Positions 3,626 through 42,446 of a stretch of DNA of 42,446 nucleotides are shown here, piece after piece; the first letter of the stretch is position 1, and every line of letters begins with the position of its first letter. Both the position numbers and the translations under genes were made by a program. A model generated the notes under the pieces. It was not told the DNA's origin. It saw nothing but the letters and a program-made list of their open reading frames with translations, and searched no databases. This DNA comes from Escherichia phage sortkaff, in sequence record MN850581.1, one strand, 5' to 3'.

Positions 3626-3859
3626 TCAGACGCCGTAACGGTCGGCAAGGAAAGAAAACCAGTTTTCAAGGCTGGCGCGTTGTTTGGCTGAAATGCCGTC
3701 GCCGTAGCGCTCCACCATTTCCGCAAACTTGCCTTTGATTGCTTTGAGGCGTTCAGCGTTCACGAAGTACGGGCCGAATGCGTCAAACGCGAAGCCGGAG
3801 CGGTCGCCCGCGCGGTTAAGAATGTCTTTGATTTGTGCAACGGTGAATTTATTAGCCAT
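3626..3859 (-). CDS. hypothetical small protein
   Basis: 77 aa from MANKFTV...; RBS GGAGAAA 5 nt upstream of the ATG. Confidence 0.65.
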   Translation of the reverse strand: MANKFTVAQIKDILNRAGDRSGFAFDAFGPYFVNAERLKAIKGKFAEMVERYGDGISAKQRASLENWFSFLADRYGV

Positions 3860-3966: not shown

Positions 3967-4155
3967 TCAGGCCAGATCGTCGTCCACTCTCCGGCCCAGC
4001 GCTGCCACGTCGTCCTCGGTTGCCGGACGGTAGCCATAACCAGGCCCCAGCTTGCGGGCGATGTGCTGCGCCTGCGCCTGGTTCAGCGTCACGGCGATCA
4101 GATTATTGGCCGCATCGACCACGCAGTGGGCTGCGTTTGCTGCTGCTATGTTCAT
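3967..4155 (-). CDS. hypothetical small protein
   Basis: 62 aa from MNIAAANA...; RBS GAGGTGAG; ATG overlaps the upstream stop (ATGA). Confidence 0.6.
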   Translation of the reverse strand: MNIAAANAAHCVVDAANNLIAVTLNQAQAQHIARKLGPGYGYRPATEDDVAALGRRVDDDLA

Positions 4156-4388
4156 CGTCTCACCTCGTCCGCCAGCTCCTGCTCCAGTTGGGAGACCTGC
4201 GCGCAAACGTCGTCGAAGTCCTCCATCTTGTCCAGCAAGCGGCGCGCAAGATGCCTCACGACCTCCTCGCAGTCGAGGCCGCCGATCGAGCTGGGCGGAT
4301 AACCTTCGCTTAACATGGTCAGCTCTGCGTCGTCCAGCTCCTGCTCGTCCAGGTGGCGGACTGGTCGGGCCAGTTCCAGCTTATTCAT
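4152..4388 (-). CDS. hypothetical small acidic protein
   Basis: 78 aa from MNKLELARP...; RBS GAAGGGAGG; start overlaps the upstream gene's end. Confidence 0.6.
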   Translation of the reverse strand: MNKLELARPVRHLDEQELDDAELTMLSEGYPPSSIGGLDCEEVVRHLARRLLDKMEDFDDVCAQVSQLEQELADEVRR

Positions 4389-12790: not shown

Positions 12791-13027
12791 TTAACAATCT
12801 TTGTGGTCGTCCCACGGTCCGAAGCCTCCCACGTAGACAAATTCTCCGCCGTTCTCCCGGCGCTCCTGCCTGGCGTGATATGCCGCGTTCTGCCCGGTTC
12901 GTTTCTCCTGCTTCATTGCCTTGCAGGTCTTGGAACAAAAGCGGCCCCAGCCCCGTTTAAGGTCCGCCACGCGGACCTCGTGCATTTTGCCGCACCATTC
13001 GCACGGCTTGATTTTTTTAGCGGCCAT
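12791..13027 (-). CDS. hypothetical zinc-ribbon protein
   Basis: 78 aa with CEWCG ... CSKTC (C-x2-C ... C-x3-C); start overlaps the upstream gene's end. Confidence 0.55.
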   Translation of the reverse strand: MAAKKIKPCEWCGKMHEVRVADLKRGWGRFCSKTCKAMKQEKRTGQNAAYHARQERRENGGEFVYVGGFGPWDDHKDC

Positions 13028-13298
13028 ATGCTTTCCGTAATGCGTCGTTAGCGTTAGCCATCAGCTCGGCGATCTCGCGCTGCGTGGCCTTGTATGCCTC
13101 CGGGCCTGCGTACCACATGCGGAGGCGGTTGGTAAGGCACTGCGCGTTAAAGGCCAGTGTCTGCGCCTGGACCAGCATCAGGCGGCTAACTACGCGCGCT
13201 TTGTTTGTGCGGGCGAAAATGGTCCCCGGCTGGTCGCCCCAGTATTTGGCGCGGAGGTCTGCCAGTGTCTGGCCGTTTTTGTTGGTTGCTGTAGTCAT
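13017..13298 (-). CDS. hypothetical protein
   Basis: 93 aa from MTTATNK...; RBS GAGGAAAA. Confidence 0.6.
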   Translation of the reverse strand: MTTATNKNGQTLADLRAKYWGDQPGTIFARTNKARVVSRLMLVQAQTLAFNAQCLTNRLRMWYAGPEAYKATQREIAELMANANDALRKAYGR

Positions 13299-13329
13299 TT
13301 CGTTTTCCTCGCTGGTTGGTGTGAGAAAG

Positions 13330-13358
13330 AATATAACAAAGGATAAATGGGGCCGCAA
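13330..13358 (-). promoter_or_regulatory. sigma70-like promoter (-35 TTGCGG, 17-bp spacer, -10 TATATT) for the small-gene operon
   Basis: Minus-strand reading TTGCGG-ccccatttatcctttgt-TATATT; CGTGAT at 13377-13382 upstream; overlaps the 13-mer GTGAGAAAGAATA (plus 13321-13333). Confidence 0.4.
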
Positions 13359-13380
13359 GGATTATTTTAATTATTTCGTG

Positions 13381-13410
13381 ATAAAAGAGAAAAGGCCCCG
13401 GAGTGGGGCC
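13381..13410 (-). terminator. rho-independent terminator after the Dam operon
   Basis: Minus-strand stem GGCCCC-actcc-GGGGCC followed by UUUUCUCUUUUAU. Confidence 0.7.
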
Positions 13411-13415
13411 TGAGA

Positions 13416-14153
13416 CTAGCGGACGTTAGCGAGGAAGGTCGCGAGCGCGAAGCCCTCCGGGGTGGCGCTGCGTATGTTCTTTGTGCGGGTACTCGATCCG
13501 CCCAGCTTGGACCAGCCGGGATTATCTTTAGCCGCCGGGACTGGCTTCACCTCCGGCATAACGAAGCCGCCACCACACCAGATCCCGGTCTGCTTCGGAT
13601 AGGCATCGCGCGCCGGGTAGATCTCCGGGTATAGGCGGTGCTGGTGGTCGTCCGGCAAGTAGCCGCCGTAATGGTACGGGTGAAACCAGTAATCACAGGG
13701 CCGCCACATCGTCGAGAGCCGGGAGATCTTCGGATTCTCCAGCATCCACGGAACGGGCCGCGAATCGTCATAGCTGCCATTCTCATAGGCGGCGAAGTTC
13801 GCCACCTCCTCCACCATGCGAGCCAGCGCGACGGCCTTGTGTTGGAAGTACGGATCCCGCGCCCGTTTCAGCTCCCACCAGCGCGCCCCGGTGCAAGTAA
13901 GGTCGGTACACTCGGCAAACGAGGCGACAAACTCAATACCGGGGCCGACCTCCTCGACAATGGTCAGCGCCTCGATCTCGGTATGCTGCGCGTTAAACAT
14001 GCGCCCGACGCGGATAAGGTTCGGCTCCTGCGGGTCTGGGTGGATCCCGTCCTCGTGCTGGCCGTCATACATCCAGCATTGATAGCCAGCCCGGAGCCAC
14101 GGATCAACCATGATCCGCGTAAGGTTGAATAAGAATATCGCCTTACGCGTCAT
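13416..14153 (-). CDS. hypothetical protein, possible nucleic-acid-modifying enzyme (unassigned)
   Basis: 245 aa, aromatic-rich, with short motifs reminiscent of but not diagnostic for C5-methyltransferases (LENP, TPEGFALA). Translationally coupled to the upstream gene with a GAGG RBS. Confidence 0.7.
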   Translation of the reverse strand: MTRKAIFLFNLTRIMVDPWLRAGYQCWMYDGQHEDGIHPDPQEPNLIRVGRMFNAQHTEIEALTIVEEVGPGIEFVASFAECTDLTCTGARWWELKRARDPYFQHKAVALARMVEEVANFAAYENGSYDDSRPVPWMLENPKISRLSTMWRPCDYWFHPYHYGGYLPDDHQHRLYPEIYPARDAYPKQTGIWCGGGFVMPEVKPVPAAKDNPGWSKLGGSSTRTKNIRSATPEGFALATFLANVR

Positions 14154-14154
14154 G

Positions 14155-14739
14155 TTACGGCCTCGCTGGCATAATGATCATCGTGGACGGTCCGAAAGGC
14201 GTCTTAAACTCGACGCGCATCGGCATGTTATTACCCGCGAAGTGGAGATCAACAAACGGCATCTTAATCCCGAATTTTTTCCCCAGCTTTTCGACGAGGC
14301 CCAGATATTCCGCCATCACCTTAACGTCCGTCACGGCTTTGGAGTTGTTCTTCGCGCTCTCGATCACTGCGGTAAGGTTCGGATAATTGGCGTCCACGAC
14401 GTCAACCGTCCCGACGGCCAGGCGCTGGCGGCGGAAGTCGAAGCCCTCCAGGTCCTGCGGCTTGTCTGCCATCTGCGCGCACCAGTACACGATCCCGGCT
14501 TCGGTATCGATCACGGCGGTAGAGTAGGCGCGCCCGGTCGGCGGTGTGGAAACGTTCAGGATCAGGCCATCCGCCGGGGCCTCGGTCAGCGCGGAGCGGG
14601 TGGAGAGCGCTACGTGGCCGTTAGACGTCTGGATCTCGTCGCCTTTGAAGTGTAAAGCGTTCAGGTAATACCGCACATCCTGGCGGCCTTTGGTGAGCTG
14701 GTGAGCGCGGAGCGCGTCAACGGGTGCATAGATGATCAT
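14155..14739 (-). CDS. hypothetical protein
   Basis: 194 aa; RBS AAGGGGGA 8 nt upstream; sits between the Dam gene and the 245-aa gene in the same operon. Confidence 0.7.
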   Translation of the reverse strand: MIIYAPVDALRAHQLTKGRQDVRYYLNALHFKGDEIQTSNGHVALSTRSALTEAPADGLILNVSTPPTGRAYSTAVIDTEAGIVYWCAQMADKPQDLEGFDFRRQRLAVGTVDVVDANYPNLTAVIESAKNNSKAVTDVKVMAEYLGLVEKLGKKFGIKMPFVDLHFAGNNMPMRVEFKTPFGPSTMIIMPARP

Positions 14740-14752
14740 CTTTGAGTCCCCC

Positions 14753-15453
14753 TTAAATCAGGCTTTTGCCTGCGTACATCATTTCGGTAAGCGTTACGTA
14801 TTCCGTCTTGATCTCGCCGCGCTTGCGGGGCTTGATCAGGAATAAAACGGACGACTTCGCATTTTTGCCGCCAGGTTCCCCGGTCACGGCATCCACAAAC
14901 GCCACGCGCCCGGACGTCTCGCCGTCGCTGGTGATGTGGACAATGACGGACGCATGATCCAGCGCTTTCTTAAACCAGGCCGTAGAGGCGTCGGAGTTCA
15001 CGAGGAGGACCGTCGAGACGCCGCGCGTCTTTGCCTGCTCGATCGCTTTGGTCACAAACGGCATCGGCTCCGCGTATGGTGGGTTACACCACGCCAGCCC
15101 GTTCTCCGCGCCCCAGTTCACTTCGTCGCGGAGGGCGTTCGTCTCCTGTCCAGATAGCAGGCGCACAGGGCGTTAATCTTCTCGGCGGCCACGTCGATCC
15201 CAAACTCGCCGAAACGCTTACGCGCCCAGGCGAAAAGCCACTCCGGCGTCCGCCACTTCTGGCGCACTTTGTCCGGCGTCTTGCTGCCTTTGAAACGGCG
15301 ACCGCTCACGCGGTTCTCGTCGTCGGCCATGATCTCGTTAGTCGCTTTCTGGCCGATGGCCGCGAGCTGGGTCATAACGCCGGGGGCCACGCCATGCTCC
15401 GCGCCTGCCTGCTCCAGCATTTCGATCGTGCTCTTGTCGTTCTCGTATTTCAT
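14753..15453 (-). pseudogene. dam: phage Dam-type DNA N6-adenine methyltransferase (NPPY motif), interrupted by a frameshift
   Basis: N-terminal part (15118..15453, ...WRTPEWLFAWARKRFGEFGIDVAAEKINALCACYL) and C-terminal part (14753..15166, ...NWGAENGLAWCNPPYAEP...) lie in frames offset by one base. Frame switch must fall between plus 15121 and 15171; no slippery heptamer seen. Confidence 0.65.
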
Positions 15454-15483
15454 TGGATTATCCTTTGTTGGTGGATCGCAATT

Positions 15484-15512
15484 AACATAATGGAAGCGTG
15501 ATTTTATTTCAA
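15484..15512 (-). promoter_or_regulatory. sigma70-like promoter for the Dam operon (-35 TTGAAA, 17-bp spacer, -10 TATGTT) with ATCACGCTTCC in the spacer
   Basis: Minus-strand reading TTGAAA-taaaATCACGCTTCCat-TATGTT-aATTGCG; closely matches the promoter at 2220..2248; RBS AAAGGA before the Dam ATG. Confidence 0.45.
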
Positions 15513-15592
15513 GAGGAAAATGTGATTTACTTGTGCTGTCTCTTTCCTTCGTCGGAAAAAATTAGCGCCCGCTGGTATCGGTCGCGCCCATT

Positions 15593-15618
15593 GGCCCCTC
15601 GTGCGGGGCCTTTTTTTT
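15593..15618 (+). terminator. canonical rho-independent terminator oriented for plus-strand transcripts
   Basis: GGCCCC-tcgtgc-GGGGCC followed by T8. The T-tract overlaps the primase stop codon on the opposite strand; no plus-strand gene is evident upstream. Confidence 0.55.
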
Positions 15619-16429
15619 ACCCAAACGCGCCGCAATAGTCAGCGCCCCAGCAAGCCCTCCCCGTCCGCTCGTGCCGATACATCCAGATCTCGTCCGGGTC
15701 AGTCGCCACCATGCGAAGCTCCCGATCGCCCTCATACTCCAGCGCCACCTCGACGGCATTACCCGGCGTAAACGTCAGCCAGACCTCGGCCCCTGTCCGC
15801 GCGGCCACCTTTGCAGCATGGCCGGGATCGGCCACCAGATAAGCCGTCTTGCCCTCGGCGACTGGGTGGATCAGGCCGTAGGATCCCCACGTCGGGCCGC
15901 CTGCTGCAAACGTCACGGAGCGGTCAGGCGCTATCTTCGCCACATTGCAGGGCGATCCCCCCAGCGCACGGAAGCACGGCACATACAGGAAGCCGCCGCG
16001 CATGGTCCCTTTGCTCATGATCAGCTCGACCTCCTCCGGCTTGAGGCTCCAGTCCTCGCGGGGCCGCTGCTGCATGGCTGCGAATTTCTTCGCCTCTTTG
16101 ACGATGGTTTCCCGCTTCTCCGGGGTGAGTCCGCCGATCCAGTCGCCCAGGTCGTTGATCGCCTCGTTGAATGGCTGGTTACGGGAGGCCATAAACCAAA
16201 ACATCCCATCACGCGCGCCGCCACACGAGCCGGAGCAATACGCGAAGCCGTCCCGGCGTTTTTCCTTGTCCTTGTGGCCCCAGCGGAAACGGTCGTTTCC
16301 TCCACATATCGGGCATGGTTGATGCCGCCCCTTGAATATGGCGCGGTCCCAGCCGCACAGCTCGATCAGGACTTGCTCCCATTTGTCCGGCATGGCGGCC
16401 AGTACATCCTCTTTTTTATAAATTGCCAT
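15617..16429 (-). CDS. DNA primase (zinc-ribbon plus TOPRIM-like domain)
   Basis: 270 aa; T7/P4-type primase zinc ribbon CPICGGNDRFRW ... YCSGSCGG; downstream acidic motifs (VAEGKTAYLVADPG, ATDPDE) consistent with TOPRIM; RBS GGAGGA. Confidence 0.7.
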   Translation of the reverse strand: MAIYKKEDVLAAMPDKWEQVLIELCGWDRAIFKGRHQPCPICGGNDRFRWGHKDKEKRRDGFAYCSGSCGGARDGMFWFMASRNQPFNEAINDLGDWIGGLTPEKRETIVKEAKKFAAMQQRPREDWSLKPEEVELIMSKGTMRGGFLYVPCFRALGGSPCNVAKIAPDRSVTFAAGGPTWGSYGLIHPVAEGKTAYLVADPGHAAKVAARTGAEVWLTFTPGNAVEVALEYEGDRELRMVATDPDEIWMYRHERTGRACWGADYCGAFG

Positions 16430-16497
16430 GTTGTCCTCCGGTTAATTCTGCATTACTATAAATCACGCTTTAATGATATTACAAGGAATAAAAAGGC

Positions 16498-18552
16498 ATG
16501 GTAGAGACACTGGAGCGCCAGATAGCGGCGATCGACAAAGACGCCATACTCCGCGCGCTGGGCGACTTGCCCGTGACTCCATACGATCATCAGTTCGTAG
16601 CGTATGAGGCTTGTCAGCAAGCTATCCGCAAATATCCCGGCCCGGTTATTGTGGATGCCGCCGTTTCTGCGGGTAAGACAATCATGATCGCCATGCTGGC
16701 GCGCCGGATCCGCGATCTCGGCTATCCGGCCATGATCCTGTCCCGTCAGGCGGAGATCATCGATCAGGACCATGAGGAGCTGAAAAACTTCCAGGTGTGG
16801 TCCTCGATCTACTGCGCGGGCATCAATAACACGAAGTCGAACAAATTCCCGATCATCGTCGGCTCGGAGGGTACGGTGATCGGCGGCATTAAGCCAGGCG
16901 AAAAGCTGGCGAACTATGCGCCGCTGTTCCTGCTGATCGATGAATGCCATCACGTCAACATAGAGGACCTGATCCGCTCTGAAAATCGCAAGGTCCCGGA
17001 GTACCTGGTGGAGAATGGGGCCTATGTGCTGGACGAGTTCGGCGAAAAGGTTCAGGTAGGGGAGCACGTCGGCGAGACTTACGAAGAAATGATCGAGAGT
17101 GGCCGCGCCGCCTATACGATCATCATTCGCACTTTTCAGGAGCGATGCCGCCGCGTCCACGGTAAGGAGCTGCGGATCATCGGTTACACCGGGACGCCTT
17201 ACCGGGGCTGCGAGTCCATCATCCAGCCGGACCTTAAGGAGCCGGGATTCTGGCGTAAGAAGGTATGCGAGATCTCTACGGAATACCTTGTAAGCGTCGG
17301 CGCTGTCGTCCCGACACGCTTCGGGATCTCCGATCTCCGGTACGACCTGAGCCAGTGGCGATCGACGGGCGAGGAGGGGATCAAGGAGTTTTCCGACGCT
17401 GATATGAAAGCGATGGAAGCCGCGATCCACAAGGACAAAAAGCTAACACAAAAAATCATGGCGGAAGTGTACGCCATCACTGAAAACCGTAACGGGGTGC
17501 TGGTGACGTGCGCCGGGGTCCGCCACTGCAAAGAGGCCGCCGCCGCGCTGCCGGAGGGGACGCCGTTCGCCATCATCACGGAGGACACGACGCCGCGCAA
17601 ACGCCGCGAGATCCTCAAAGATGCCAATACGGGCAAAATAAAATTCATCTTCCAGGTTAACGCGCTCACGACGGGCGTCAACGTGCCTTTCTGGGACACG
17701 TCGGTGATCCTGCGTAAGATTGGCTCCCTCACCCTGTTAACCCAGCTCTTAGGCCGTGGTATGCGTATTCTTAAGCCGTTCCATCTGGCCGCCGGGTACA
17801 CGAAAGAGGATCACCTGGTACTCGACTACGCCGGGACGCTCGACGAGCTGGGATCGTTGTACTTCTCCCCGCTGCTGGAGGCTTACCAGCATAACGCCGA
17901 CGAGAGCAAGGGTAAGCTGGTTCAGCGCTGCCCGAAATGTTACGCGGCTGGCCGCACGGTCATGAATGGCGAACATGCCCGCCGTTGCCGCTGGGTGGAT
18001 CCTGATACGAAAATCCGATGTGACCACTTTTTCACGTTCATAACCTGCGACGACTGGAAGGACTCCAGCGGGAAGATCGTCACGCAAAAAGGCTGCGGCG
18101 CGAAAAATGACATTGTGGCCCGCATCTGCCGCTGCTGCGGTAATAGCCTTGTGGATCCGAATGAAAAGCTATCACACACGGCATACAGCAAAGATGATTA
18201 TTGCACGGTCCGCGATTTCAGGATCGAGCCAGCGCGAGGCCGTAATGGCAACGATACGGGCGGCGTGGCTTTCCGGTACGTTCTGGAGCGTGACGGCGTG
18301 GAGTTTATCGCGTGGCAAGTGTTCTGGCCGGGTAGCGATTCCCCCCAGGCGCGCAAGGAGTGGCTACATAACGCGGTCAATAAGCACGTACTGGACGGAA
18401 GCATGAGAAAACAGATCAAGGAGTGCCGGACGGTCGGCGCTGTCATGAGTTACGCCGGGTACTTTATGCGCCCGCTCAAAGTGACTCACCGCAAGATCGG
18501 CAAGGGTAAAGACGTTATTTCGAACAAAATTTTTCTGAATGAGGACTTTTAA
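16498..18552 (+). CDS. superfamily-2 DNA helicase (DEAH-box) with C-terminal Cys-rich zinc-finger-like region
   Basis: 684 aa; Walker A DAAVSAGKT, DEAH box LLIDECHH, C-terminal CPKC ... C ... CRCC cluster. Confidence 0.8.
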   Translation: MVETLERQIAAIDKDAILRALGDLPVTPYDHQFVAYEACQQAIRKYPGPVIVDAAVSAGKTIMIAMLARRIRDLGYPAMILSRQAEIIDQDHEELKNFQVWSSIYCAGINNTKSNKFPIIVGSEGTVIGGIKPGEKLANYAPLFLLIDECHHVNIEDLIRSENRKVPEYLVENGAYVLDEFGEKVQVGEHVGETYEEMIESGRAAYTIIIRTFQERCRRVHGKELRIIGYTGTPYRGCESIIQPDLKEPGFWRKKVCEISTEYLVSVGAVVPTRFGISDLRYDLSQWRSTGEEGIKEFSDADMKAMEAAIHKDKKLTQKIMAEVYAITENRNGVLVTCAGVRHCKEAAAALPEGTPFAIITEDTTPRKRREILKDANTGKIKFIFQVNALTTGVNVPFWDTSVILRKIGSLTLLTQLLGRGMRILKPFHLAAGYTKEDHLVLDYAGTLDELGSLYFSPLLEAYQHNADESKGKLVQRCPKCYAAGRTVMNGEHARRCRWVDPDTKIRCDHFFTFITCDDWKDSSGKIVTQKGCGAKNDIVARICRCCGNSLVDPNEKLSHTAYSKDDYCTVRDFRIEPARGRNGNDTGGVAFRYVLERDGVEFIAWQVFWPGSDSPQARKEWLHNAVNKHVLDGSMRKQIKECRTVGAVMSYAGYFMRPLKVTHRKIGKGKDVISNKIFLNEDF

Positions 18553-18999
18553 ATGTACCTGTTAACCCGTGGAAATGTGACGATCGACGTAAACGAGGGC
18601 AAGGACTGGCTGGAATTTACCCGCCGCCATAATCTGCCGCTCTGCCCGCTGGAGGCGGTGGAGCAAAAGGAAACTAACACTTACTTGCGCTACTTCCACC
18701 CTGAGATCCTGGCGTTCCATCCGGTCAACGAATCGGGGGCCGCTGGTGATGAAAAGTACGGCGCGGAGCTGAAAAAACGCGGACGCCTCACCGGGATCTC
18801 CGACTGGGTGATCCTGGAGCCACGGGGCGGCCACCCCTACGCCCTGATCGAGCTTAAGCGAAACCTTAAGAGCAAGAGCCGATTAACGCCGGACCAGAAA
18901 GAGGTCTTGCTGGCGGCCAAAAAGCGCGGCGCGTGGACTGCGGTCGCGTGGGGTTGTGACGCTTTCGAGGCGGCGCTGGAAATGTATCTTGCTTTGTAG
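18553..18999 (+). CDS. VRR-NUC domain nuclease
   Basis: 148 aa; PD-(D/E)XK-type motif ISDWVILEP ... ALIELKR characteristic of VRR-NUC; immediately downstream of the helicase; RBS GAGGA. Confidence 0.7.
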   Translation: MYLLTRGNVTIDVNEGKDWLEFTRRHNLPLCPLEAVEQKETNTYLRYFHPEILAFHPVNESGAAGDEKYGAELKKRGRLTGISDWVILEPRGGHPYALIELKRNLKSKSRLTPDQKEVLLAAKKRGAWTAVAWGCDAFEAALEMYLAL

Positions 19000-19028
19000 T
19001 TGCGAACATCACGAAAGCATGATATAAA
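19000..19028 (+). promoter_or_regulatory. sigma70-like promoter (-35 TTGCGA, 17-bp spacer, -10 TATAAA) with ATCACGA in the spacer
   Basis: TTGCGA-acATCACGAaagcatga-TATAAA upstream of the exonuclease gene. Confidence 0.45.
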
Positions 19029-19060
19029 ATAAGCCTACCCACCACGAAAGAGACGAGACG

Positions 19061-20107
19061 ATGGAACTACAAACAAACGGCCTGATCCCTGAGCTGCCGA
19101 CGATGGAAGTTTACGGATCGATGTTTATCGACGCCCGCGCGGCGGAGGACCTGAGTAACGAAGCCTATCACGAGGACGAGATCTATATTACCGGGTCGAG
19201 CCTCTGGACTATCTTTAGCCAGTGTCCGGCGGCGTGGCGTTTCCAGAAAGCACAGGAGGACAAGGCCAAAAAACTTAACTCCGCCCAGAAGCCGCTCACG
19301 TTCGGGACCACTTCCCACACGATGTTACTTGAGCCGGACCGCTTCCAGCGCGAGTTTTACCGCCTGCCTAACCCGGACGACTTCCCGGAGCTGATTACCT
19401 CTATGGCGAAGATGCAAGCCTGGTTAAAGGAGCGCGGCCAGAAGGGCTACTCCAACAAAACGGCGGAGGAGCTGATCGCGATGTGTCGCCAGATCCAGCA
19501 ACCGGACGAAGTGCTAAACATCTGGCACGAGATCGAGGCAAACGCCATCAAAGAGGCGAACGGTCGCGAGATCGTCCCGGCGAAGGACTGGGACCGCGTT
19601 CACTCTATGCGCGACGTGCTGCTGGCTAACCACAATTACCGCCGGATCATTGAGACGGGGATCCCGGAGCTGTCCATCTTCTGCATTATCGACGGCGTTC
19701 CCGTTAAGGTGCGTCTGGACCGCGTAACGGACCTCGGCGAGATCATCGACTACAAAACCACGCAAAGCGCGGAGCCGGAGCGCTTCGGTCGTCTGGCTCA
19801 CGATCTGGGCTACTGGTGCAAGATGGCGTTACAGCATGACTGCTTCCAGCTCTGCTACCAGCAAAACCCGACCGGGACGAAGTTACTTGTACAGGAGAAG
19901 GACGAGCCGTGGCTGGCGCTCATGAATCGCCTTACGCCTGAGCAATTGATGATCGGGCGCGGCCAGTACAAGACGGCGCTCCAGCTCTTTAAACAGTGCC
20001 GCGATCTGGATATCTGGCCCGCATACGCGAACGGCCAGGAGGAGATCGACCTCCGCACTCCGATTTATTTACAGCAACGTTACAAAGAATATTTTAAGGA
20101 GATCTAA
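19061..20107 (+). CDS. PD-(D/E)XK recombination exonuclease (RecB/YqaJ-like fold)
   Basis: 348 aa; motif LDRVTDLGEIIDYKTT (D ... DYK) typical of RecB-family nucleases; sits directly upstream of the ERF annealing protein. Confidence 0.7.
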   Translation: MELQTNGLIPELPTMEVYGSMFIDARAAEDLSNEAYHEDEIYITGSSLWTIFSQCPAAWRFQKAQEDKAKKLNSAQKPLTFGTTSHTMLLEPDRFQREFYRLPNPDDFPELITSMAKMQAWLKERGQKGYSNKTAEELIAMCRQIQQPDEVLNIWHEIEANAIKEANGREIVPAKDWDRVHSMRDVLLANHNYRRIIETGIPELSIFCIIDGVPVKVRLDRVTDLGEIIDYKTTQSAEPERFGRLAHDLGYWCKMALQHDCFQLCYQQNPTGTKLLVQEKDEPWLALMNRLTPEQLMIGRGQYKTALQLFKQCRDLDIWPAYANGQEEIDLRTPIYLQQRYKEYFKEI

Positions 20108-20833
20108 ATGGAAAACATCATCCAGTTTTCGGCCACTCGTGGCGAGTTTATGAAAGCGTTTTTTGCCGCCCGGAAGAACATCGGCACGATCTCCAAAACG
20201 CGCAAAAACGATCACTTAAAATCGACTTACGCCAACCTGTCGGACTACCTGGACGCCATCGACTCCGCGATCGAGGAGCAAGGCTTGATGGTGATCCAGT
20301 CTCCGGGCGCGTTTACCGCTGCGGGCGATATGCCGATGGAAACCAGGATCGAGCATGTCGAATCGGGCGAGTTTATGGTGGCGCTCATGGAGATCCACGT
20401 CGATCGTAAAAACGCCCAGGGCGACGGCTCCGCGATTTCCTACGCCCGCCGCTACCACATCGGCGCGCTGTTCGGTCTGACTGCCGACGACGACGACGGC
20501 CACGGCGCTAAACGCAAGTTTGCCGACTACAAAAAAGAGTTTGACCTGATCGAAGATATTACCGAACTGAAAAAAGAGGCCCGCGTGGCGTTCATGTACC
20601 TGAAAGGCCAGGAGACGGAGCAAAACCTGATCCACGAGTACGTCGCGAAGCGTGAAGCCAAAGCGGCGGCCTCTACTGCGGTCGGTTTCAATCCGGCGGC
20701 CCCGGTTGCTCGTCGTGGTCAGAAGCCGCAAAATGCGCAAGCCCCGGTACAGGGGCAGACGCCGGAGCCGGAAACGAAAGAGGCCCCTGCTCCGGTACAG
20801 GACGACAAAAAACCGAATCTTGAGGACTTCTAA
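20108..20833 (+). CDS. erf: ERF-family single-strand annealing protein
   Basis: 241 aa; similarity to P22 Erf recalled from memory ([14 protein letters not shown] and [15 protein letters not shown] versus P22 SSYARKYCLNGLFG); RBS AAGGAG. Confidence 0.8.
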
Positions 20834-20835
20834 AC

Positions 20836-21384
20836 ATGGCATCACGCGGCGTAAATAAGGTGATTCTGGTCGGCAATCTGGGACAGGATCCCGAAGTAAG
20901 ATATATGCCGTCGGGCGGGGCGGTCGCGAACATCACGATCGCCACCTCTGAGTCTTGGCGCGATAAGCAGACCGGGGAGCAAAAGGAGCAAACGGAATGG
21001 CATCGCGTGGTGCTGTTCGGCAAGCTGGCGGAGATCGCCGGGGAGTACCTCAAAAAAGGCTCGCAGGTCTACATTGAGGGCCAGCTTAGGACGCGCAAAT
21101 GGACAGACCAGCAAGGCGTCGAGAAGTACACGACGGAGGTCGTCGTGAACGTTGGCGGCACTATGCAAATGCTGGGTAGCCGGGGCGGGAATGATGGCGG
21201 CCAGTCTGGGGGGAACGGTGGCGGGCGTCAGTATTCCGGCCAGACCTCCGGCGGGAATGGCAATTCTCGCAATTCTCCGGGCCGTGGCGGGGCGCAAACG
21301 CAAAAAGGAGGGGGTAGTAGCCAAAATGCGGGACAAGGCGCTGGAGAGCCTCCTATGGACTTCGACGATGATATCCCGTTTTAA
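20836..21384 (+). CDS. ssb: single-stranded DNA-binding protein
   Basis: 182 aa; classic SSB OB-fold N-terminus ([43 protein letters not shown]...[12 protein letters not shown]), Gly/Gln-rich linker and acidic tail DFDDDIPF. Confidence 0.95.
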
Positions 21385-21427
21385 CTCACTGGCCCCTCCG
21401 GGGGCCTGATCCTCCCAGGGGTCGAAG

Positions 21428-21868
21428 ATGAAACAATGTACAATCTGCAAAGAGCTTAAGCCGCTGGAGGCGTTCCACAGAAACCGGAGCAAAAAGGACG
21501 GGCGTGACTGCCGCTGTAGCGCCTGCAAAAACGCGAAGGGCCGGAGCTACTACCACGCCGATCCAGTGCGCAAAGAGAAGATCATCGCCAGCGTAAAGGC
21601 ATACCAGGCCGGACCGGGACGCGAGCTGGCAAACGCCACAAAGTCGGCATACCACACGCGACACGCCAAAAAGCGGCGCGCTCATAATCTGGTCTATAAC
21701 GCGTTAAGGCGCGGGGACCTCGTGAAAAGCCCGTGTGAGTGTTGCGGGGAGTTAAAGGTGGTAGGGCATCACGACGACTACGATCGCCCGTTAGACGTGC
21801 GCTGGCTTTGCGAGAGGCATCACAAGGAATGGCATCGGCTCCACGGGGAAGCCTTAAATCCCGATTGA
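21428..21868 (+). CDS. HNH endonuclease
   Basis: 146 aa; N-terminal CTIC ... CRCSAC zinc knuckle and C-terminal HNH core CECCG ... HH ... N ... WLCERHH. Confidence 0.7.
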   Translation: MKQCTICKELKPLEAFHRNRSKKDGRDCRCSACKNAKGRSYYHADPVRKEKIIASVKAYQAGPGRELANATKSAYHTRHAKKRRAHNLVYNALRRGDLVKSPCECCGELKVVGHHDDYDRPLDVRWLCERHHKEWHRLHGEALNPD

Positions 21869-21893
21869 CGTAAATCACTAACTAATTAATAAT
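21865..21893 (+). promoter_or_regulatory. sigma70-like promoter (-35 TTGACG, 17-bp spacer, -10 AATAAT) with AATCAC repeats
   Basis: TTGACG-taaATCACtaactaatt-AATAAT-cACGGAG; upstream of the XRE regulator gene; ATCACG spans the -10/+1 junction. Confidence 0.4.
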
Positions 21894-21910
21894 CACGGAG
21901 ACGTTAACAA

Positions 21911-22138
21911 ATGTTGGAGCCTATGATGGCACAGAAACTTAAGCCCGTTTGCCTCGTGAAAGAAGTCCGCGAGGCGAAGGGCGTAAAACAGAAAGATTTA
22001 GCGGACGCGACGGGCATCCTCCAGCAACGTTTAAGCTGCTATGAGAACGGCCACGAGCTGCCGTCTGTAACTAACCTCTGCCGCCTGGCTATGGCGTTGG
22101 ATGTTTCCATTAACGATCTGATCGAGTACGGGGTGTAA
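21911..22138 (+). CDS. XRE-family helix-turn-helix transcriptional regulator (Cro/CI-type)
   Basis: 75-aa ORF; HTH signature QKDLADATGILQQRLSCYENG; most likely start is the ATG at 21926 (GGAG 6 nt upstream). Confidence 0.7.
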   Translation: MLEPMMAQKLKPVCLVKEVREAKGVKQKDLADATGILQQRLSCYENGHELPSVTNLCRLAMALDVSINDLIEYGV

Positions 22139-22139
22139 A

Positions 22140-22514
22140 TTGAGCGATATCGACGGCATCAAAACGATCGAGGCGATTGTGGACATTATCGCCCGCACTT
22201 TCCACGAGGCTAATCGCGCCTATTGCCAGGCACTGGGCGACGATAGTCAAAAGAGCTGGGACGAGGCCCCGGAGTGGCAGCGGGAGAGCGCCCGTAACGG
22301 CGTACTGTTCCACCTTAACGGCGATCACGGCCCGGAAGCCAGTCACGAGTCCTGGCTGGCTGAGAAGCGCGCACAGGGCTGGAAATATGGCCCGGTTAAG
22401 GATGCCGAAGCGAAAGAGCATCCTTGCTTTGTGCCTTATAGCGAGCTGCCGCCGGAGCAAAAAGCGAAAGATTACATTTTCCGCGCGATCGTCCACGCGC
22501 TCGGCAAAGCGTAA
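22140..22514 (+). CDS. hypothetical protein, RyR-domain-like
   Basis: 124 aa, apparent TTG start; motifs SHESWLAEKRAQGWKYGPVKD and HPCFVPYSELPPEQKAKD recalled as typical of phage RyR-domain proteins. Confidence 0.55.
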   Translation: MSDIDGIKTIEAIVDIIARTFHEANRAYCQALGDDSQKSWDEAPEWQRESARNGVLFHLNGDHGPEASHESWLAEKRAQGWKYGPVKDAEAKEHPCFVPYSELPPEQKAKDYIFRAIVHALGKA

Positions 22515-35881: not shown

Positions 35882-36148
35882 CTATTTCGTGGCGGCTTTC
35901 ACGAGGCATTGAGACAGATATAGCGCTTCGTGGTGCGGCGGGACCGAAGCGGGGATCACGCAGTACAGCGCGACGTTAGGCCCCGTGTTCGCGTGGATCA
36001 TTTCGCTGGCGACTATCCGCCACTTTTCGCCGTCCGGCCCGGTCAGGATGCCGTCGAGGTCGTGTAGTTCTTCCTTGACCTGCGCGATCCGGCTTAACGT
36101 TGTCGGTCCCTTCCCTGGGAACGCGAGATAGTGATGGACGGTTTTCAA
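35882..36148 (-). CDS. hypothetical protein (cassette gene D)
   Basis: 88-aa ORF whose start overlaps the stop of gene C (ATGA). Confidence 0.55.
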   Translation of the reverse strand: MKTVHHYLAFPGKGPTTLSRIAQVKEELHDLDGILTGPDGEKWRIVASEMIHANTGPNVALYCVIPASVPPHHEALYLSQCLVKAATK

Positions 36149-37671: not shown

Positions 37672-39906
37672 TTATTGTGCGGCACGTTCCAGGGTGTTGT
37701 CGGCCTGCTGCTGCGCCTGGCGCTCGGCCAGTTGCTGCGCTGCTCGGTCGCTCTGGATCTGGTGGCCCTGCCCTACGGATTTCAGGAACAAGTCGGCCTG
37801 TTTGTGCGCGTCCTGGCTCTGGGCCGTGACGTACTTCTGGAGGATGGCAACGGCGGCCATTAGCTGATCCTGCGGGATAGCTGCGGCCTCGGCCATCGTC
37901 TTGACGGTCTGCGCCTGCTTGAGCTGGCCGTCTGCCTGCGTCCCCTGCGCCTTGAGCTGCAATTCTAAGCGCTTGTTGTCCTGCTCCATAACGGCGGCCT
38001 TGCCCTGGTCTGCCACGCCCTGCGCTGCGACCATCTGCGCGTCCGGCTGGTCCTGCTGGCTCTGCTGGGCCTGCGCTACCATCTGTTTTTCCTCGTCCGT
38101 CTGCGGCTTCACAATGCCGGAGAGTAAAAGCTGGTTGCGGGTGTACTCTTTGAAGTCCTGGAGGCCCTCGCCGTCCATGTTCGCGATGATCAGGCTCATG
38201 ACGATCGTCGCGTTAGGGTCGCCCGGTTGCATGGTCGCTAACAGGTTAGTCAGGCTGCGGACAGTCTGCTGGCGTCGCGTCTGGGAGGACTCGCCGACGT
38301 CGGCCACGATCTCATATTTGCCGCGCTTGAGGTCGTTAATCGCGATCACTTCCTTCGTCTCGCGATCGACTACCTTCCCGGTCATTAACACGAGGTCGTC
38401 GCTCCCGTCCTCCTGCTGGATCCTCACGTAAGACTCGGAGCCGTAAACCTTGCGAGCGGCGGACAGGTAGACGCGGCCACAATGGCGCAACGTCTTAGCC
38501 AGGTTGTCCATGTAGAGCGCGCCCTGGCCGTCCATGCGCGCGAAAATTGCCTCCACGGTTTCAGTCGCCAGATTCGACGGCAGCGCTTCGAGCTGGGAGG
38601 ATCCGACAATCTGCTGGATCGTCGCCCCGGTGTACTGGAGAACGGCAGCGAGCGCCGGAGAGAGCGGAGTCGCCGGAGTATAGCCCAGCGGTCCGGCCTG
38701 CTGGACGACCTCACCAGACGCATTACGGAGCGATTTAGCGGGCAGATACGCGGGGCGCTTCGTGTTGCGATCCCCCCAGGCGTTGGCGAGATTTCCGGGG
38801 ATCATGTCGATATCCATGATCGGGATGTTGTCGCCGCCTGCCTGCGCGGCCTGGTCGGCCATCATCGACACGATCAGGTTTTCCAGACGCTGGGCGTCCA
38901 TCGCGAGCGTGGCGTGGCCCATCACGCGCTCCTGGTTGTCGATAAACGAGCGGCGCGCGTTGAAGATGAAAACCGGGATCCATTCGAACGGGATCAGCTT
39001 CGGCTCCTCGATCCACTCCCCGCCGGAAAACAGACCGCAATAGACCTTACGACGTTTGACACGGCGATCCTTGAGCTTTTTCCAGCCTGCGGCCTTAAGC
39101 TCGTCGAAAACCTGCTCCATGTCGTCCTCGTCGTAGACCTCCGTTTCCCCGGTGAGCGGGTTCTGGTAGGAGATCACGGTGGTGTCCTCGATCTTCACCT
39201 CGTAGTAACGGGCGATATAAATCGCGTCTTTAGAGGCCCAGTCAAACCATTTGCCCGTGTTCAGCTCCATGAGGTCCTCCGGGGCCATCGCGTCCGGGTA
39301 ACGCTCCTCGTACTTCTCCGGGGTCATGCTGAATAGCTCGGCCATCCACATAGCATCACTGCGATCGTACATTTTGGAGTCAGGATCGACAAAGAGGCAC
39401 GAGGCCGGATCGTAGATCGGGTAAAAGACGATGTGCCGCTCCTCGTTGTCGGGATCAAATTCGTCCTCCAGCTCCGTGTCCATGCGAAACGCGCCCATCC
39501 CGCCGTCGATGCCGTCGCCGTAAGTGTTATCGACGGACTCCGGCCCGTTGCTCTCGTTGTAGTCGGCGCGGAATTTGCCGTTTAGCTTGTCGGCCAGCTC
39601 CTCGGATGCCTTTTCGTCCTTCGGACGGAATACCACGGAGACACGGTTTAGGCGGTAATCGGTGATCAGGCGGTCGCACTCGCGGGCCACTTTGTTAAGT
39701 TCGAATCGAGGGTATTTCTCGAATCGTTCATCATCCATCGCAAAGCCGGAGTTGGTCGATCCTTCCCACTGCGCGCCCGGAATACGGACAAAGCGCTGGG
39801 TTTCGATCATTTTCTTGCGGCTTTGCTCCTCGCTGGCGATCGTCTGGCTCAGGCGCTTACGCGCCGTCTCATGCCAGTTCTGGGCCGATTTGGTGACTCG
39901 TGCCAT
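37672..39906 (-). CDS. portal protein, P22 gp1-like
   Basis: 744 aa; similarity to P22 portal recalled from memory (ARYYEVKIEDTTVISYQNPLTGETEVY ... KDRRVKRRKVY versus [27 protein letters not shown] ... AERQIKRRRVY); Gln-rich C-terminal helical region. Confidence 0.9.
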   Translation of the reverse strand: MARVTKSAQNWHETARKRLSQTIASEEQSRKKMIETQRFVRIPGAQWEGSTNSGFAMDDERFEKYPRFELNKVARECDRLITDYRLNRVSVVFRPKDEKASEELADKLNGKFRADYNESNGPESVDNTYGDGIDGGMGAFRMDTELEDEFDPDNEERHIVFYPIYDPASCLFVDPDSKMYDRSDAMWMAELFSMTPEKYEERYPDAMAPEDLMELNTGKWFDWASKDAIYIARYYEVKIEDTTVISYQNPLTGETEVYDEDDMEQVFDELKAAGWKKLKDRRVKRRKVYCGLFSGGEWIEEPKLIPFEWIPVFIFNARRSFIDNQERVMGHATLAMDAQRLENLIVSMMADQAAQAGGDNIPIMDIDMIPGNLANAWGDRNTKRPAYLPAKSLRNASGEVVQQAGPLGYTPATPLSPALAAVLQYTGATIQQIVGSSQLEALPSNLATETVEAIFARMDGQGALYMDNLAKTLRHCGRVYLSAARKVYGSESYVRIQQEDGSDDLVLMTGKVVDRETKEVIAINDLKRGKYEIVADVGESSQTRRQQTVRSLTNLLATMQPGDPNATIVMSLIIANMDGEGLQDFKEYTRNQLLLSGIVKPQTDEEKQMVAQAQQSQQDQPDAQMVAAQGVADQGKAAVMEQDNKRLELQLKAQGTQADGQLKQAQTVKTMAEAAAIPQDQLMAAVAILQKYVTAQSQDAHKQADLFLKSVGQGHQIQSDRAAQQLAERQAQQQADNTLERAAQ

Positions 39907-39923: not shown

Positions 39924-41546
39924 TCAGTAGTTGCTCGGCACATTATAGCCGTGATAGTCGTCGTTTTTCACGCGCTCCGGCGGCTGCATCAACATGCAAA
40001 GCACGTCGGCCATGCCTGGCGATTTCATTTTGAGCTTGGTCCGCATCTGCGGCTTAGGCATACGGGCAAACTTGCCGTTGGTGTTGTATACGCGCGGAAT
40101 ACGGCAGACCTCGGCGCGTAACTTCTGCATATGCTCCCCGATCCCGGCCTTGTCCAGACTGATCAGCTCCTCCGGGTTGTGGTAGATGCCTTTCACGACG
40201 GCCTCGTAAGTCTTTTCGAAGCGACGGCGTAACAGGTAGATATCCTGGCTCCCCCTGTTCGCAAAAGCATCAACATTTTTCAGGAGGTTGTCGCCCTCGG
40301 TCTTGTTGTTGAGCCAGTGATCCAGCTCCACCAGCCCGTCCGGGTCTTTGACGCCCTCCCCGGCGTTGTAGCCGTCCACGATAACGTTAGTCCCGGCGTA
40401 AGCCTCCGTTACCTGGCGACGCAGGCCAGCGCCCAGCCCTGCCCGGTCCCACACAAAAGCCTCGACGCCGTGGATCTTCGCCTCGCCGATCGCCCGGTCT
40501 ACTGCGTCGTTAGCGTCGCCCTCGTACCACTCGGACATATGGGTGACGACTGGCCCCTGGCGCTCGCCATAGGCTTTGTTATCGGTCCCGACGTCCGCCG
40601 GGTCGAGTGCTGCGATCCTCATGCCGGACGGTTTAAAGCCTAAATGCAAATGAGCGTCGATCGCGGCATCAAACCATTCAGCCGGGATAATGGCATCCGG
40701 CACGGAGTCATTGAAATGACCTTCCCAGACGTGATCGAACAAGGCGCGGGAGAGGGTTTTCCGGTCAAACTCCATTTCTGCGCGGAGTTCGGGCGGAAAC
40801 CACGGGTTATCCGACCAGTTGACGCGGATAACCAGGTGGAGATCGTCCTCATAGATGCCGTCGCGGAGTAGATCCTCCCAGAATGGATTAATAAATCGCT
40901 TGCTGAATGGGTCCTCACTGGATCCGGGGTTGGCGGTGAATAGCATCATGCCGCCCTTTTCGCGCATGGTCGGCGTCAGCTTGCGGATCGACTCCTCGGA
41001 GAACGTTTGCGCCTCCTCGCCCCAGAATCGTTTGAAGCCGAAAGCGGATTTCACGCCGTCCGGGTCGCGGGCCATCCCCTTAAAACGGATGATCGCGCCG
41101 TTCTCGTGGCGGATCTCCTTCTCCAGAATTTCGAAGCCGTCCAGACCGTACTCCTCGATCCGGTTGGCGAGGAGCGGGTGGACAGAATCCTTGATCGACG
41201 CCTGAAACTCACGCAGACACATAGCGCTCGCGGCCTCGTCGTGGGCGTCTGCATCCACGATCCCGCCGACGGTGAGCGACTTCCCGGAGCCACGGCCCCC
41301 GACCAGGATAACGAAGCGTTTCGGGCGTAACAGGATGGGCGTCAGGCACTCGGCGATCGTAATGTCGTGCGGGTCGCTGGTGTAAACCCACTCGCCGTTA
41401 ACCTTGCGCATGTTGTACAGGTGGCGCGCCTGCAATCCATCCGGCGCATAGACGCCGTAAACCAGGCCGCCCTCGCGCGCCTTGTAGCGGAGCATGGCCT
41501 CCAGTCGGGCCAGTCGCTCGATCGCCTCCTTACGATTTTTTGCCAT
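39924..41546 (-). CDS. terL: terminase large subunit
   Basis: 540 aa; Walker A VILVGGRGSGKS; size and position directly upstream of portal. Confidence 0.85.
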   Translation of the reverse strand: MAKNRKEAIERLARLEAMLRYKAREGGLVYGVYAPDGLQARHLYNMRKVNGEWVYTSDPHDITIAECLTPILLRPKRFVILVGGRGSGKSLTVGGIVDADAHDEAASAMCLREFQASIKDSVHPLLANRIEEYGLDGFEILEKEIRHENGAIIRFKGMARDPDGVKSAFGFKRFWGEEAQTFSEESIRKLTPTMREKGGMMLFTANPGSSEDPFSKRFINPFWEDLLRDGIYEDDLHLVIRVNWSDNPWFPPELRAEMEFDRKTLSRALFDHVWEGHFNDSVPDAIIPAEWFDAAIDAHLHLGFKPSGMRIAALDPADVGTDNKAYGERQGPVVTHMSEWYEGDANDAVDRAIGEAKIHGVEAFVWDRAGLGAGLRRQVTEAYAGTNVIVDGYNAGEGVKDPDGLVELDHWLNNKTEGDNLLKNVDAFANRGSQDIYLLRRRFEKTYEAVVKGIYHNPEELISLDKAGIGEHMQKLRAEVCRIPRVYNTNGKFARMPKPQMRTKLKMKSPGMADVLCMLMQPPERVKNDDYHGYNVPSNY

Positions 41547-41955
41547 AGCCTAAGCCCTCGTAAGCCCGTTCAATCTGGGTAAACAGCGCGCCGACCAGAT
41601 ACGCCTCCGGCTCGTCGTTCTCCGGTCCCCAGGTGATATTAAAATCATCTGCGATAAAGTTTTTGATGTGGACGACCTCGTGGGCCACGACCGCGCGCCA
41701 GTGCTGGCTCCGCTTAATTTGCACGATCGCCACATAGGCGTCGTCGGTGACGTAGGCCGTCGCTCGGCCACTCTGGCAGGGCTTCGCCGGGTCGCGCCAG
41801 TTCTCCAGCGCCTGATCCATTACCTCCAGGTGCGCGTCGTTCTGCGGGTCGATACAGCAAACGAGATAGGGGTAAGGCGTCGCCAGAAACCACTCGATCC
41901 CCAGCTTGTCGAAGCGCCCGATCGTGTCAGGCGGTAACTTATTTTTTCTGCTCAT
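41530..41955 (-). CDS. HExxH-motif protein, possibly ImmA/IrrE-like zinc metallopeptidase
   Basis: 141 aa; RAVVAHEVVHIKNF fits the AHExxH signature of ImmA/IrrE-type peptidases; overlaps both neighbours. Confidence 0.55.
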   Translation of the reverse strand: MSRKNKLPPDTIGRFDKLGIEWFLATPYPYLVCCIDPQNDAHLEVMDQALENWRDPAKPCQSGRATAYVTDDAYVAIVQIKRSQHWRAVVAHEVVHIKNFIADDFNITWGPENDEPEAYLVGALFTQIERAYEGLGYGKKS

Positions 41956-42446
41956 TCAGGAGGGCCTCCAGCGCATCAAGACGGGCGATCAGGTCGGATA
42001 GTTCTTCTACCTCGGCCCCGTGGCGGATCATCTTCACAATCACCTCGGCAGCGTCGAACGGGAGAATGCCGTCCGCCACAGCCTGCGTGACCTCGCGGAT
42101 CTTGTCGCTGGCTTTGGTCCCCTTGAGTTCAAACTGGTAGATCGGCGCGGTCGGCTTCACGTATGGCACAAGGCGGCTCAGAATGTCGCGCATCATGGAC
42201 GGGTCATAAAGCGACATCTGGATCGCGCGCTGGATGTACATATCCTCGGTCAGCGCCACCTCCACCAGCTCGTCCTCCTGGCGGATTTCGCCCGTCTCCT
42301 TGTCCTCTACGTCGATCTTGCGCCCGGTCTTTTCTTTCACCTTCACTTTTCGGAGGGCGTCGAGTAGGAGGGTGCGGAATTGCTTTTCCCGCCCGCGTCG
42401 CTGCGGCTGGTTATCCTTGCTGAATCGGTTGCCTTTCTTAAGGTTC
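41939..42446 (-). CDS. terS: terminase small subunit, 5'-partial (N-terminus outside window)
   Basis: Reading frame is open to the right window edge (LKKGNRFSKDNQPQRRGREKQF... precedes the listed start); position upstream of the large terminase; family call rests on position and the basic N-terminal motif. Confidence 0.5.
   Translation of the reverse strand, partial: NLKKGNRFSKDNQPQRRGREKQFRTLLLDALRKVKVKEKTGRKIDVEDKETGEIRQEDELVEVALTEDMYIQRAIQMSLYDPSMMRDILSRLVPYVKPTAPIYQFELKGTKASDKIREVTQAVADGILPFDAAEVIVKMIRHGAEVEELSDLIARLDALEALLNEQKK

Follow-up and report, generated by a model that had tools for sequence, protein, structure and literature searches.

An apparently exchangeable zincin-like gene in the terminase operon of Escherichia phage sortkaff

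Sortkaff is a podovirus of 59.5% GC content that has been proposed as a member of Sortsnevirus; it was obtained on E. coli MG1655 as a lytic phage (PMC7552041). The minus strand of the sequence analysed here (MN850581.1, 42,446 nucleotides in total, henceforth the window) contains at 41530..41955 an open reading frame with an ATG start that encodes 141 amino acids, is 100% identical to 'hypothetical protein sortkaff_60' and is a member of PHROG 1365; we refer to it as the zincin. Its product contains the motif AHEVVH at residues 91-96, the HExxH codons themselves (H92-E93-V-V-H96) lying at 41668..41682 and the codons for N113-D-E115-P-E-A-Y119 at 41599..41619. On the same strand are found the gene for the large terminase TerL (39924..41546, 540 aa), recognized by PF04466 (Terminase_3, E 5.5e-31), downstream of it a P22-like portal gene (37672..39906; PF16510, E 3.9e-154), and, upstream of the zincin, a gene in the position of a small terminase (41939..>42446) that runs past the end of the window. 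As read from the sequence, the zincin shares 17 nt with each of its two neighbours: its start overlaps the stop of the upstream gene at 41939..41955 (ATGAGCAGAAAAAATAA), and its stop overlaps the start of TerL at 41530..41546 (ATGGCAAAAAATCGTAA). A preliminary description had reported a 141-aa frame with AHEVVH that overlaps TerL and the upstream gene, which is confirmed; that it is wedged between two terminase genes holds for TerL by PF04466, while for the other neighbour the label of small terminase comes only from where it lies.

This upstream gene matches phrog_9747, a PHROG of unknown function, and has no relative in Pfam or among PDB sequences, even when searched with an 8-member profile. 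Its homologues come from 277 phage records, and wherever the annotation of such a record was looked at, the homologue adjoined or overlapped TerL. Given this position the gene is a putative small terminase, and it is called TerS-like in the following.

The motif HExxH occurs four times across the six frames of the window, and the zincin is the sole case in which it lies in the frame of a real gene. Compared with a 79%-identical orthologue the zincin has a dN/dS of 0.20, the values for its neighbours being 0.10 (TerL) and 0.08 (portal), indicating that it is under purifying selection and evolves about twice as fast as they do. The zincin frame is a real, conserved phage gene. A GGAGG at 41965..41969 lies 9 nt upstream of its start and a GAGGG at 41555..41559 lies 8 nt upstream of the ATG of TerL. 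Translationally coupled genes usually overlap in this way and have a Shine-Dalgarno sequence 8-9 nt before the start, and the overlap between upstream gene and zincin is kept at 17-23 nt in Sortsne, IME_EC2, L014 and L095. From the 17-nt overlaps and the internal Shine-Dalgarno sites it follows that the zincin is made together with the packaging proteins; by this arrangement its translation would be coupled to that of the TerS-like gene and of TerL. A programmed frameshift that fuses TerS, zincin and TerL was considered and rejected: both overlaps of sortkaff contain A6T, but Sortsne reads AAGAAA at the second junction, so that there is no conserved slippery site. A scan of the Sortsne locus for promoters and terminators yielded nothing beyond the expectation from shuffled sequence and listed no site in the stretch that separates the TerS-like gene from the small genes before it.

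To which family does the protein belong? It matches the phrog_1365 profile with residues 52-133 (E 3.7e-13, 50.5 bits); PHROG 1365 has no functional annotation, and relative to it the sortkaff subtype carries an extra N-terminal helix-strand of about 30 aa. Searches of Pfam (E ≤ 1), NCBIfam and PADLOC returned nothing meaningful, phmmer and the family profile gave no match among PDB sequences at E ≤ 10, and Foldseek of a structural model against the PDB found nothing significant. With HMMER, an exhaustive comparison against 1.8 billion representatives brought up 33 relatives, almost all of them 105-150 aa long, and a profile made from 37 relatives recovered 618 clusters, none of which contains a Pfam domain. 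The members have a median length of 110 aa, a core of about 108 aa and a median pI of 5.9, the pI of the sortkaff protein being 5.3. PHROG 1365, of which the zincin is a member, is a large family specific to phages, with more than 600 clusters and with neither a Pfam model nor a solved structure.

In an alignment of 37 diverse homologues no exchange is seen at H92, E93, H96, E115 or Y119, and hardly any at N113, D114 and A118. All 148 family members checked contain HExxH-x18-E-x3-Y, and the spacing of 18 residues between HExxH and the glutamate is found in all but one of the counted motif matches; the HExxH is therefore, as had been supposed, a genuine motif of the zincin type. An AlphaFold2 model based on the homologue alignment (pLDDT 95, pTM 0.88) consists of a helix, two strands (21-24 and 30-35), a helix (40-49), two further strands (63-69 and 74-80), the predicted active-site helix 86-104 with the HExxH, and a long helix, 115-134, that begins with E115, the predicted third zinc ligand. 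In the published description of the zincin core, a small sheet and an N-terminal helix are combined with two C-terminal helices, of which the first bears the HExxH and the second the Glu ligand (PMC5512222). These structural features of gluzincins are found in the model, namely the HExxH on a helix, the Glu on the next helix, and an N-terminal β-sheet with a backing helix. Foldseek matches in BFVD are small phage proteins, a few of them labelled SprT-like, metalloprotease or PolyVal metallopeptidase. Judged by its motif and its modelled fold, the protein is predicted to be gluzincin-like and to stand outside every named family tested.

Homologues of 45-79% identity fill the same slot in Sortsne, IME_EC2, sortsyn, sortregn, KMB41, ST231 and metagenomic contigs. 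Moreover, the order TerS-like gene, zincin, TerL is conserved together with the overlaps in the four genera Sortsnevirus, Murrayvirus, Skarprettervirus and Hungariovirus, across which the zincins are 21-30% identical and keep every catalytic residue. The comparison of related terminase operons also includes phages that do without the gene: in Kosakonia phage Kc237 and in Vibrio phage K13 the zincin is absent and the TerS-like gene overlaps TerL directly, and in several further listed records the match covers both the TerS-like gene and TerL. For this type of packaging module the zincin appears to be dispensable.

A second line of evidence comes from Klebsiella phage IME279, a member of the same genus. 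By blastn IME279 has a counterpart, 91-99% identical, for 95.7% of the window, and only six segments genome-wide are unmatched; one of these, 41547-41936, coincides exactly with the part of the zincin gene that lies outside both overlaps, and another is an RyR-domain gene beside an XRE-type gene. The TerS-like proteins of the two phages are 99.4% and the TerL proteins 100% identical, but the zincins only 27.9%. Alignment of the DNA is near-perfect through the first overlap and again from the second, and between them the catalytic motifs alone align, so the swap has its breakpoints exactly at the overlaps on either side of the gene. The allele of IME279 clusters with the alleles found in Skarpretter (41%) and C130_2 (33%). 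The possibility that the phage encodes a partner or substrate which varies together with the zincin allele found no support in a comparison that covered Sortsne, IME_EC2, Skarpretter and C130_2, as the five other cassettes swapped between sortkaff and IME279 do not track the allele. In the four genera, then, the slot is in every case occupied by a zincin, yet one zincin can be replaced as a whole by another with the packaging proteins remaining identical. The gene thus has the appearance of an exchangeable accessory cassette and not of a co-evolving part of the packaging machine. A mis-placed accessory gene had been among the initial suggestions; the accessory character is retained, whereas the position in the terminase operon is a conserved trait of the lineage and not an error.

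Outside these genera the gene is found in very different surroundings. In Klebsiella phage VLCpiS6a a family member lies amid small unannotated genes, and in a T4-like Mosigvirus one lies between nrdG and gp55. At 78 IMG/VR loci the neighbours are highly diverse and include primase, DnaB, SNF2 and DEAD-box helicases, a RecA-Thy1-MazG cluster, a YqaJ-domain protein, GIY-YIG and HNH endonucleases and, by reading of the sequence, a probable GroEL-type chaperonin; in most other phages the family is located in replication or nucleotide-metabolism modules. A family-wide linkage to the terminase was rejected as a general rule, since the neighbours are heterogeneous and proximity to TerL is at chance level: among contigs of at least 30 kb, TerL is found within 6 kb of a family member in 9 of 41, with 8.6 expected from random placement. 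Two unrelated Flavobacterium phages have a family member that adjoins TerL, which fits accessory genes gathering at the borders of modules. Furthermore, among the neighbours of 88 family genes (220 clusters) no recurrent cluster is an XRE HTH, and no HTH recurs.

How could such a protein act, and on what? Taken as a whole, these observations are best explained, with moderate confidence, by an active, cytoplasmic, minimal gluzincin Zn-metallopeptidase that is an exchangeable accessory. According to model and sequence conservation, H92, H96 and E115 would bind the zinc ion, E93 would serve as general base and Y119 would aid the active site, and the enzyme is predicted from the same two sources to hydrolyze peptide bonds. 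The favoured candidate for its substrate is a host protein, whose cleavage would serve takeover or counter-defence; the XRE regulator, the terminase and the head proteins are less likely. This last element derives from the evolutionary behaviour of the gene and is a tentative proposal. It is put forward because replacement by an allele of 28% identity is hard to reconcile with an enzyme whose partners, TerS, TerL and portal, are themselves identical, and because the family lies mostly outside packaging modules. In addition, the Aravind group proposed that small phage SprT-like proteins target host proteins (PMC7824862), and by analogy with such similar small phage zincins the same might apply here.

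The alternative that survives best is a protease linked to packaging or to the head, which would process TerS, the portal, the scaffold or an ejection protein, or would be carried within the virion into the cell infected next. In favour of such a role could be cited, besides the probable translational coupling to TerS and TerL, that some zincin domains of polyvalent proteins have been linked to virion-packaged proteins (PMC5512222). The zincin is always found in the TerS/TerL slot of the four genera; this counts against the host-directed accessory peptidase and could indicate a packaging-linked role, as could the TerL-adjacent members in the unrelated Flavobacterium phages. However, Kc237 and K13 have homologous TerS-like and TerL genes and no zincin, two alleles of 28% identity serve identical TerS and TerL proteins, the zincin allele co-varies with no other swapped cassette, and family-wide proximity to TerL does not exceed chance. 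Neither Pfam nor PHROG matches the frame to a prohead or maturation protease family. The head module of sortkaff is P22-like, with scaffold and coat, and ten proteins of the head, connector and tail modules were scanned with no match to a head-maturation protease, so that a maturation protease is not obviously needed; to our knowledge, assembly of the P22 type requires none. All in all we consider a packaging-linked protease unlikely. A search of the literature found no virion proteomics for the sortkaff clade; the phage of PMC8427288 has a T7-type gene set and lies outside this clade.

It could also be imagined that the zincin fold is not used for proteolysis at all and that the protein hydrolyzes another amide or a small molecule, or only binds. 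The protein has no specific structural neighbour among solved peptidases, and its relatives are often found near the nucleotide-metabolism genes Thy1, MazG and RNR, as might be expected of a non-peptidase. Against this stands the full gluzincin catalytic set, which is unchanged throughout the 148 members checked and points to metal-dependent hydrolysis, and almost all enzymes with this set of motifs that we know of are peptidases. A non-peptidase therefore appears to us quite improbable.

Somewhat similar to these small phage zincins are the SprT-like proteins, and a SprT/Wss1-like protease for DNA-protein crosslinks, clearing adducts from phage DNA before replication or packaging, would suit the family members that lie within DNA-transaction modules. 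Ten of the 37 relatives match the SprT-like Pfam family, none of them reaching the threshold (best E 0.028), the name SprT-like is attached to some BFVD neighbours, and one BFVD neighbour, from phage Loki, may be Loki gp24, which HHsearch has linked to SprT-like domains (PMC5313236). The sortkaff protein itself, on the other hand, has no match to PF10263, and hhalign of the alignment of 37 homologues against one of enterobacterial SprT gave a probability of 16% over 22 columns, the HExxH helix only. SprT homologues have the Zn-ribbon PF17283 alongside PF10263 and an invariant H95 after HELAH; in the sortkaff zincin the Zn-ribbon is absent, as is any DNA-binding domain, and a glutamate, E115, is invariant where SprT has this histidine. 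The acidic to neutral pI of the family does not favour this role either. Crosslink repair is thus very unlikely, and, going by these alignments, the zincin does not appear to be SprT proper. Least probable, and in our opinion hardly tenable, is an anti-repressor role of the ImmA/IrrE type, in which the protease would cleave the XRE regulator of the phage and couple packaging to regulator turnover: the HExxH plus downstream Glu does follow the ligand logic of IrrE and the genome does encode an XRE-type HTH_3 protein of 75 aa (21911..22138, plus strand, E 2e-13), but Peptidase_M78 (PF06114) has no match to the protein at E ≤ 1 and is absent among the families matched by the 37 relatives, the spacing is x18 and not x26, the XRE gene lies 19.4 kb from the zincin and has the same remote place, following the ERF/SSB genes, in Sortsne, IME_EC2 and Skarpretter, no HTH gene is recurrent beside the 88 family members, the group was isolated as lytic phages (PMC7552041), and the XRE gene of sortkaff sits inside a blastn block that is 98.5% identical to IME279 (13023-22138) although the zincin has been swapped for an allele of 28% identity. 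By profile, glutamate spacing and neighbouring genes the zincin is very probably not an ImmA/IrrE repressor-cleaving protease. Of the initial proposals, the distance of about 20 kb to an XRE-type regulator was accurate, while the resemblance to ImmA/IrrE, the link between packaging and turnover of this regulator and a SprT-like membership have to be given up, with M78 and SprT both unmatched above threshold in the profile searches. The family profile likewise found nothing at E ≤ 10 among all PDB sequences, which include the deposited chains of IrrE/PprI and CapP.

Returning to the host-directed accessory peptidase, a more specific version might explain the location of the gene. TerL and portal are the proteins recognized by Avs-type bacterial immune sensors. 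The zincin could be a counter-defence protease that was placed in the terminase-portal operon in order to be made together with TerL and portal, with the allele swaps as the footprint of an arms race; this is a speculative idea with a low probability. If it were true, the swapping of alleles (28% as compared with 99-100% for the neighbours) would mark an arms race over the host protein that is cleaved. More generally, sortkaff and IME279 constitute a natural allele-swap experiment, and specificity and target of the zincin are directly testable because the genomes match at 91-99% over about 96% of the window and the zincins are 28% identical. The family spans, with its more than 600 clusters, phages of Enterobacteria and Bacteroidota as well as crAss-like and jumbo phages, and it contains a complete, invariant metalloprotease active site within about 108 residues, yet is covered by no Pfam model or solved structure. 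Should the target be a defence or housekeeping protein of the host, the family would represent a new class of enzymes for phage takeover or anti-defence; otherwise it would be one more accessory gene.

How does the zincin compare with known systems? In ImmA/IrrE proteins (M78, COG2856, including CapP) the HExxH and the glutamate are separated by about 26 residues, as exemplified by the IrrE active site H82/E83/H86/E113 (PMC12828697), as compared with 18 in the sortkaff zincin, which has no match to their profile. Unlike them, the zincin has neither an adjacent XRE substrate gene nor an extra sensor domain, and it is encoded by a lytic phage. SprT-like proteins (PF10263) and the 'SprT-like metallopeptidases' of phages (PMC7824862, PMC5313236) have a context of the HExxH helix similar to that of the small phage zincins, but the downstream ligand is a histidine in SprT and predicted to be a glutamate here, and the Zn-ribbon is found in SprT only. 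With the zincin-like MPTase superfamily, gluzincin type (Iyer et al., 2017, PMC5512222), the sortkaff protein shares the β-sheet with N-terminal helix, the HExxH helix and the Glu-helix after it. The named clades of this superfamily that were tested (M78 and SprT-like) fail to match it, as does every solved structure, and in comparison with the superfamily the sortkaff family is distinguished by its minimal domain of 108-141 aa, which stands alone, keeps strictly to the x18 spacing and has NDExxAY invariant.

Recombination breakpoints of the cassette swap, by which the zincin (141-aa HExxH) gene of sortkaff differs from that of Klebsiella phage IME279 of the same genus, lie at the conserved 17-nt overlaps of this gene with its neighbors, the gene in TerS position (41939-41955) and TerL (41530-41546). 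Both overlaps contain an A6T run, and basic, similar N-termini are encoded at the two sites (MSRKNK and MAKNRK). It could be imagined that the A6T run serves as frameshift signal, which is unlikely because the A-run of the overlap is interrupted in the related phage Sortsne.

The zincin gene is not the only exchangeable element. Four small cassettes (3634-3852, 3969-4318, 12792-13022 and 35894-36144) are missing from IME279 and occur patchily in other relatives, one being found in phage C130_2 at 78% and one in IME_EC2 at 70%. These cassettes are a flexible pool of accessory genes within the otherwise near-identical genomes of sortkaff and IME279. A gene for a RyR-domain protein (22140-22514, plus strand; PF02026, E 1.8e-12), immediately 5' of which the XRE HTH_3 gene is located, is also one of only six segments of the window unmatched in IME279, which is otherwise 91-99% identical and carries an unrelated 79-aa gene at this position.

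The protein in TerS position (41939-42446, minus strand) belongs to phrog_9747, a family also encoded at loci L001, L092, L097 and L100 and without match in Pfam or among PDB sequences. Homologues were found in 277 phage records, with TerL adjoining in those inspected. Their labels vary and include DUF5681, "putative recombinase" (Lumpael) and "DNA gyrase subunit A" (KMB41), all of which are probably mis-annotations.

Among relatives of the zincin (IMG/VR loci), homing-endonuclease-type genes recur one to few genes away, either GIY-YIG (e.g., L031, L077, L080) or HNH_3 (e.g., L048), and MazG or NTP-pyrophosphatase genes are also frequent nearby (L010, L003, L004). One metagenomic protein (P0036, 467 aa) contains the zincin domain twice, in identical tandem copies that may reflect a recent duplication or an assembly artefact.

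The zincins of Stutzerimonas phage vB_SstS_STP9 (OR754315.1, an unannotated record) and coliphage C130_2 share 95.8% identity, even though STP9 is listed with a host from a different order. The T4-like myovirus vB_EcoM_ESCO47 (Escherichia phage, Mosigvirus) also encodes a family member (L002, 3959-4369), which is 33% identical, shares the N-terminal extension and is surrounded by small genes, with nrdG/glutaredoxin on one side and gp55 on the other. Its presence in a T4-like phage suggests horizontal spread among coliphages.
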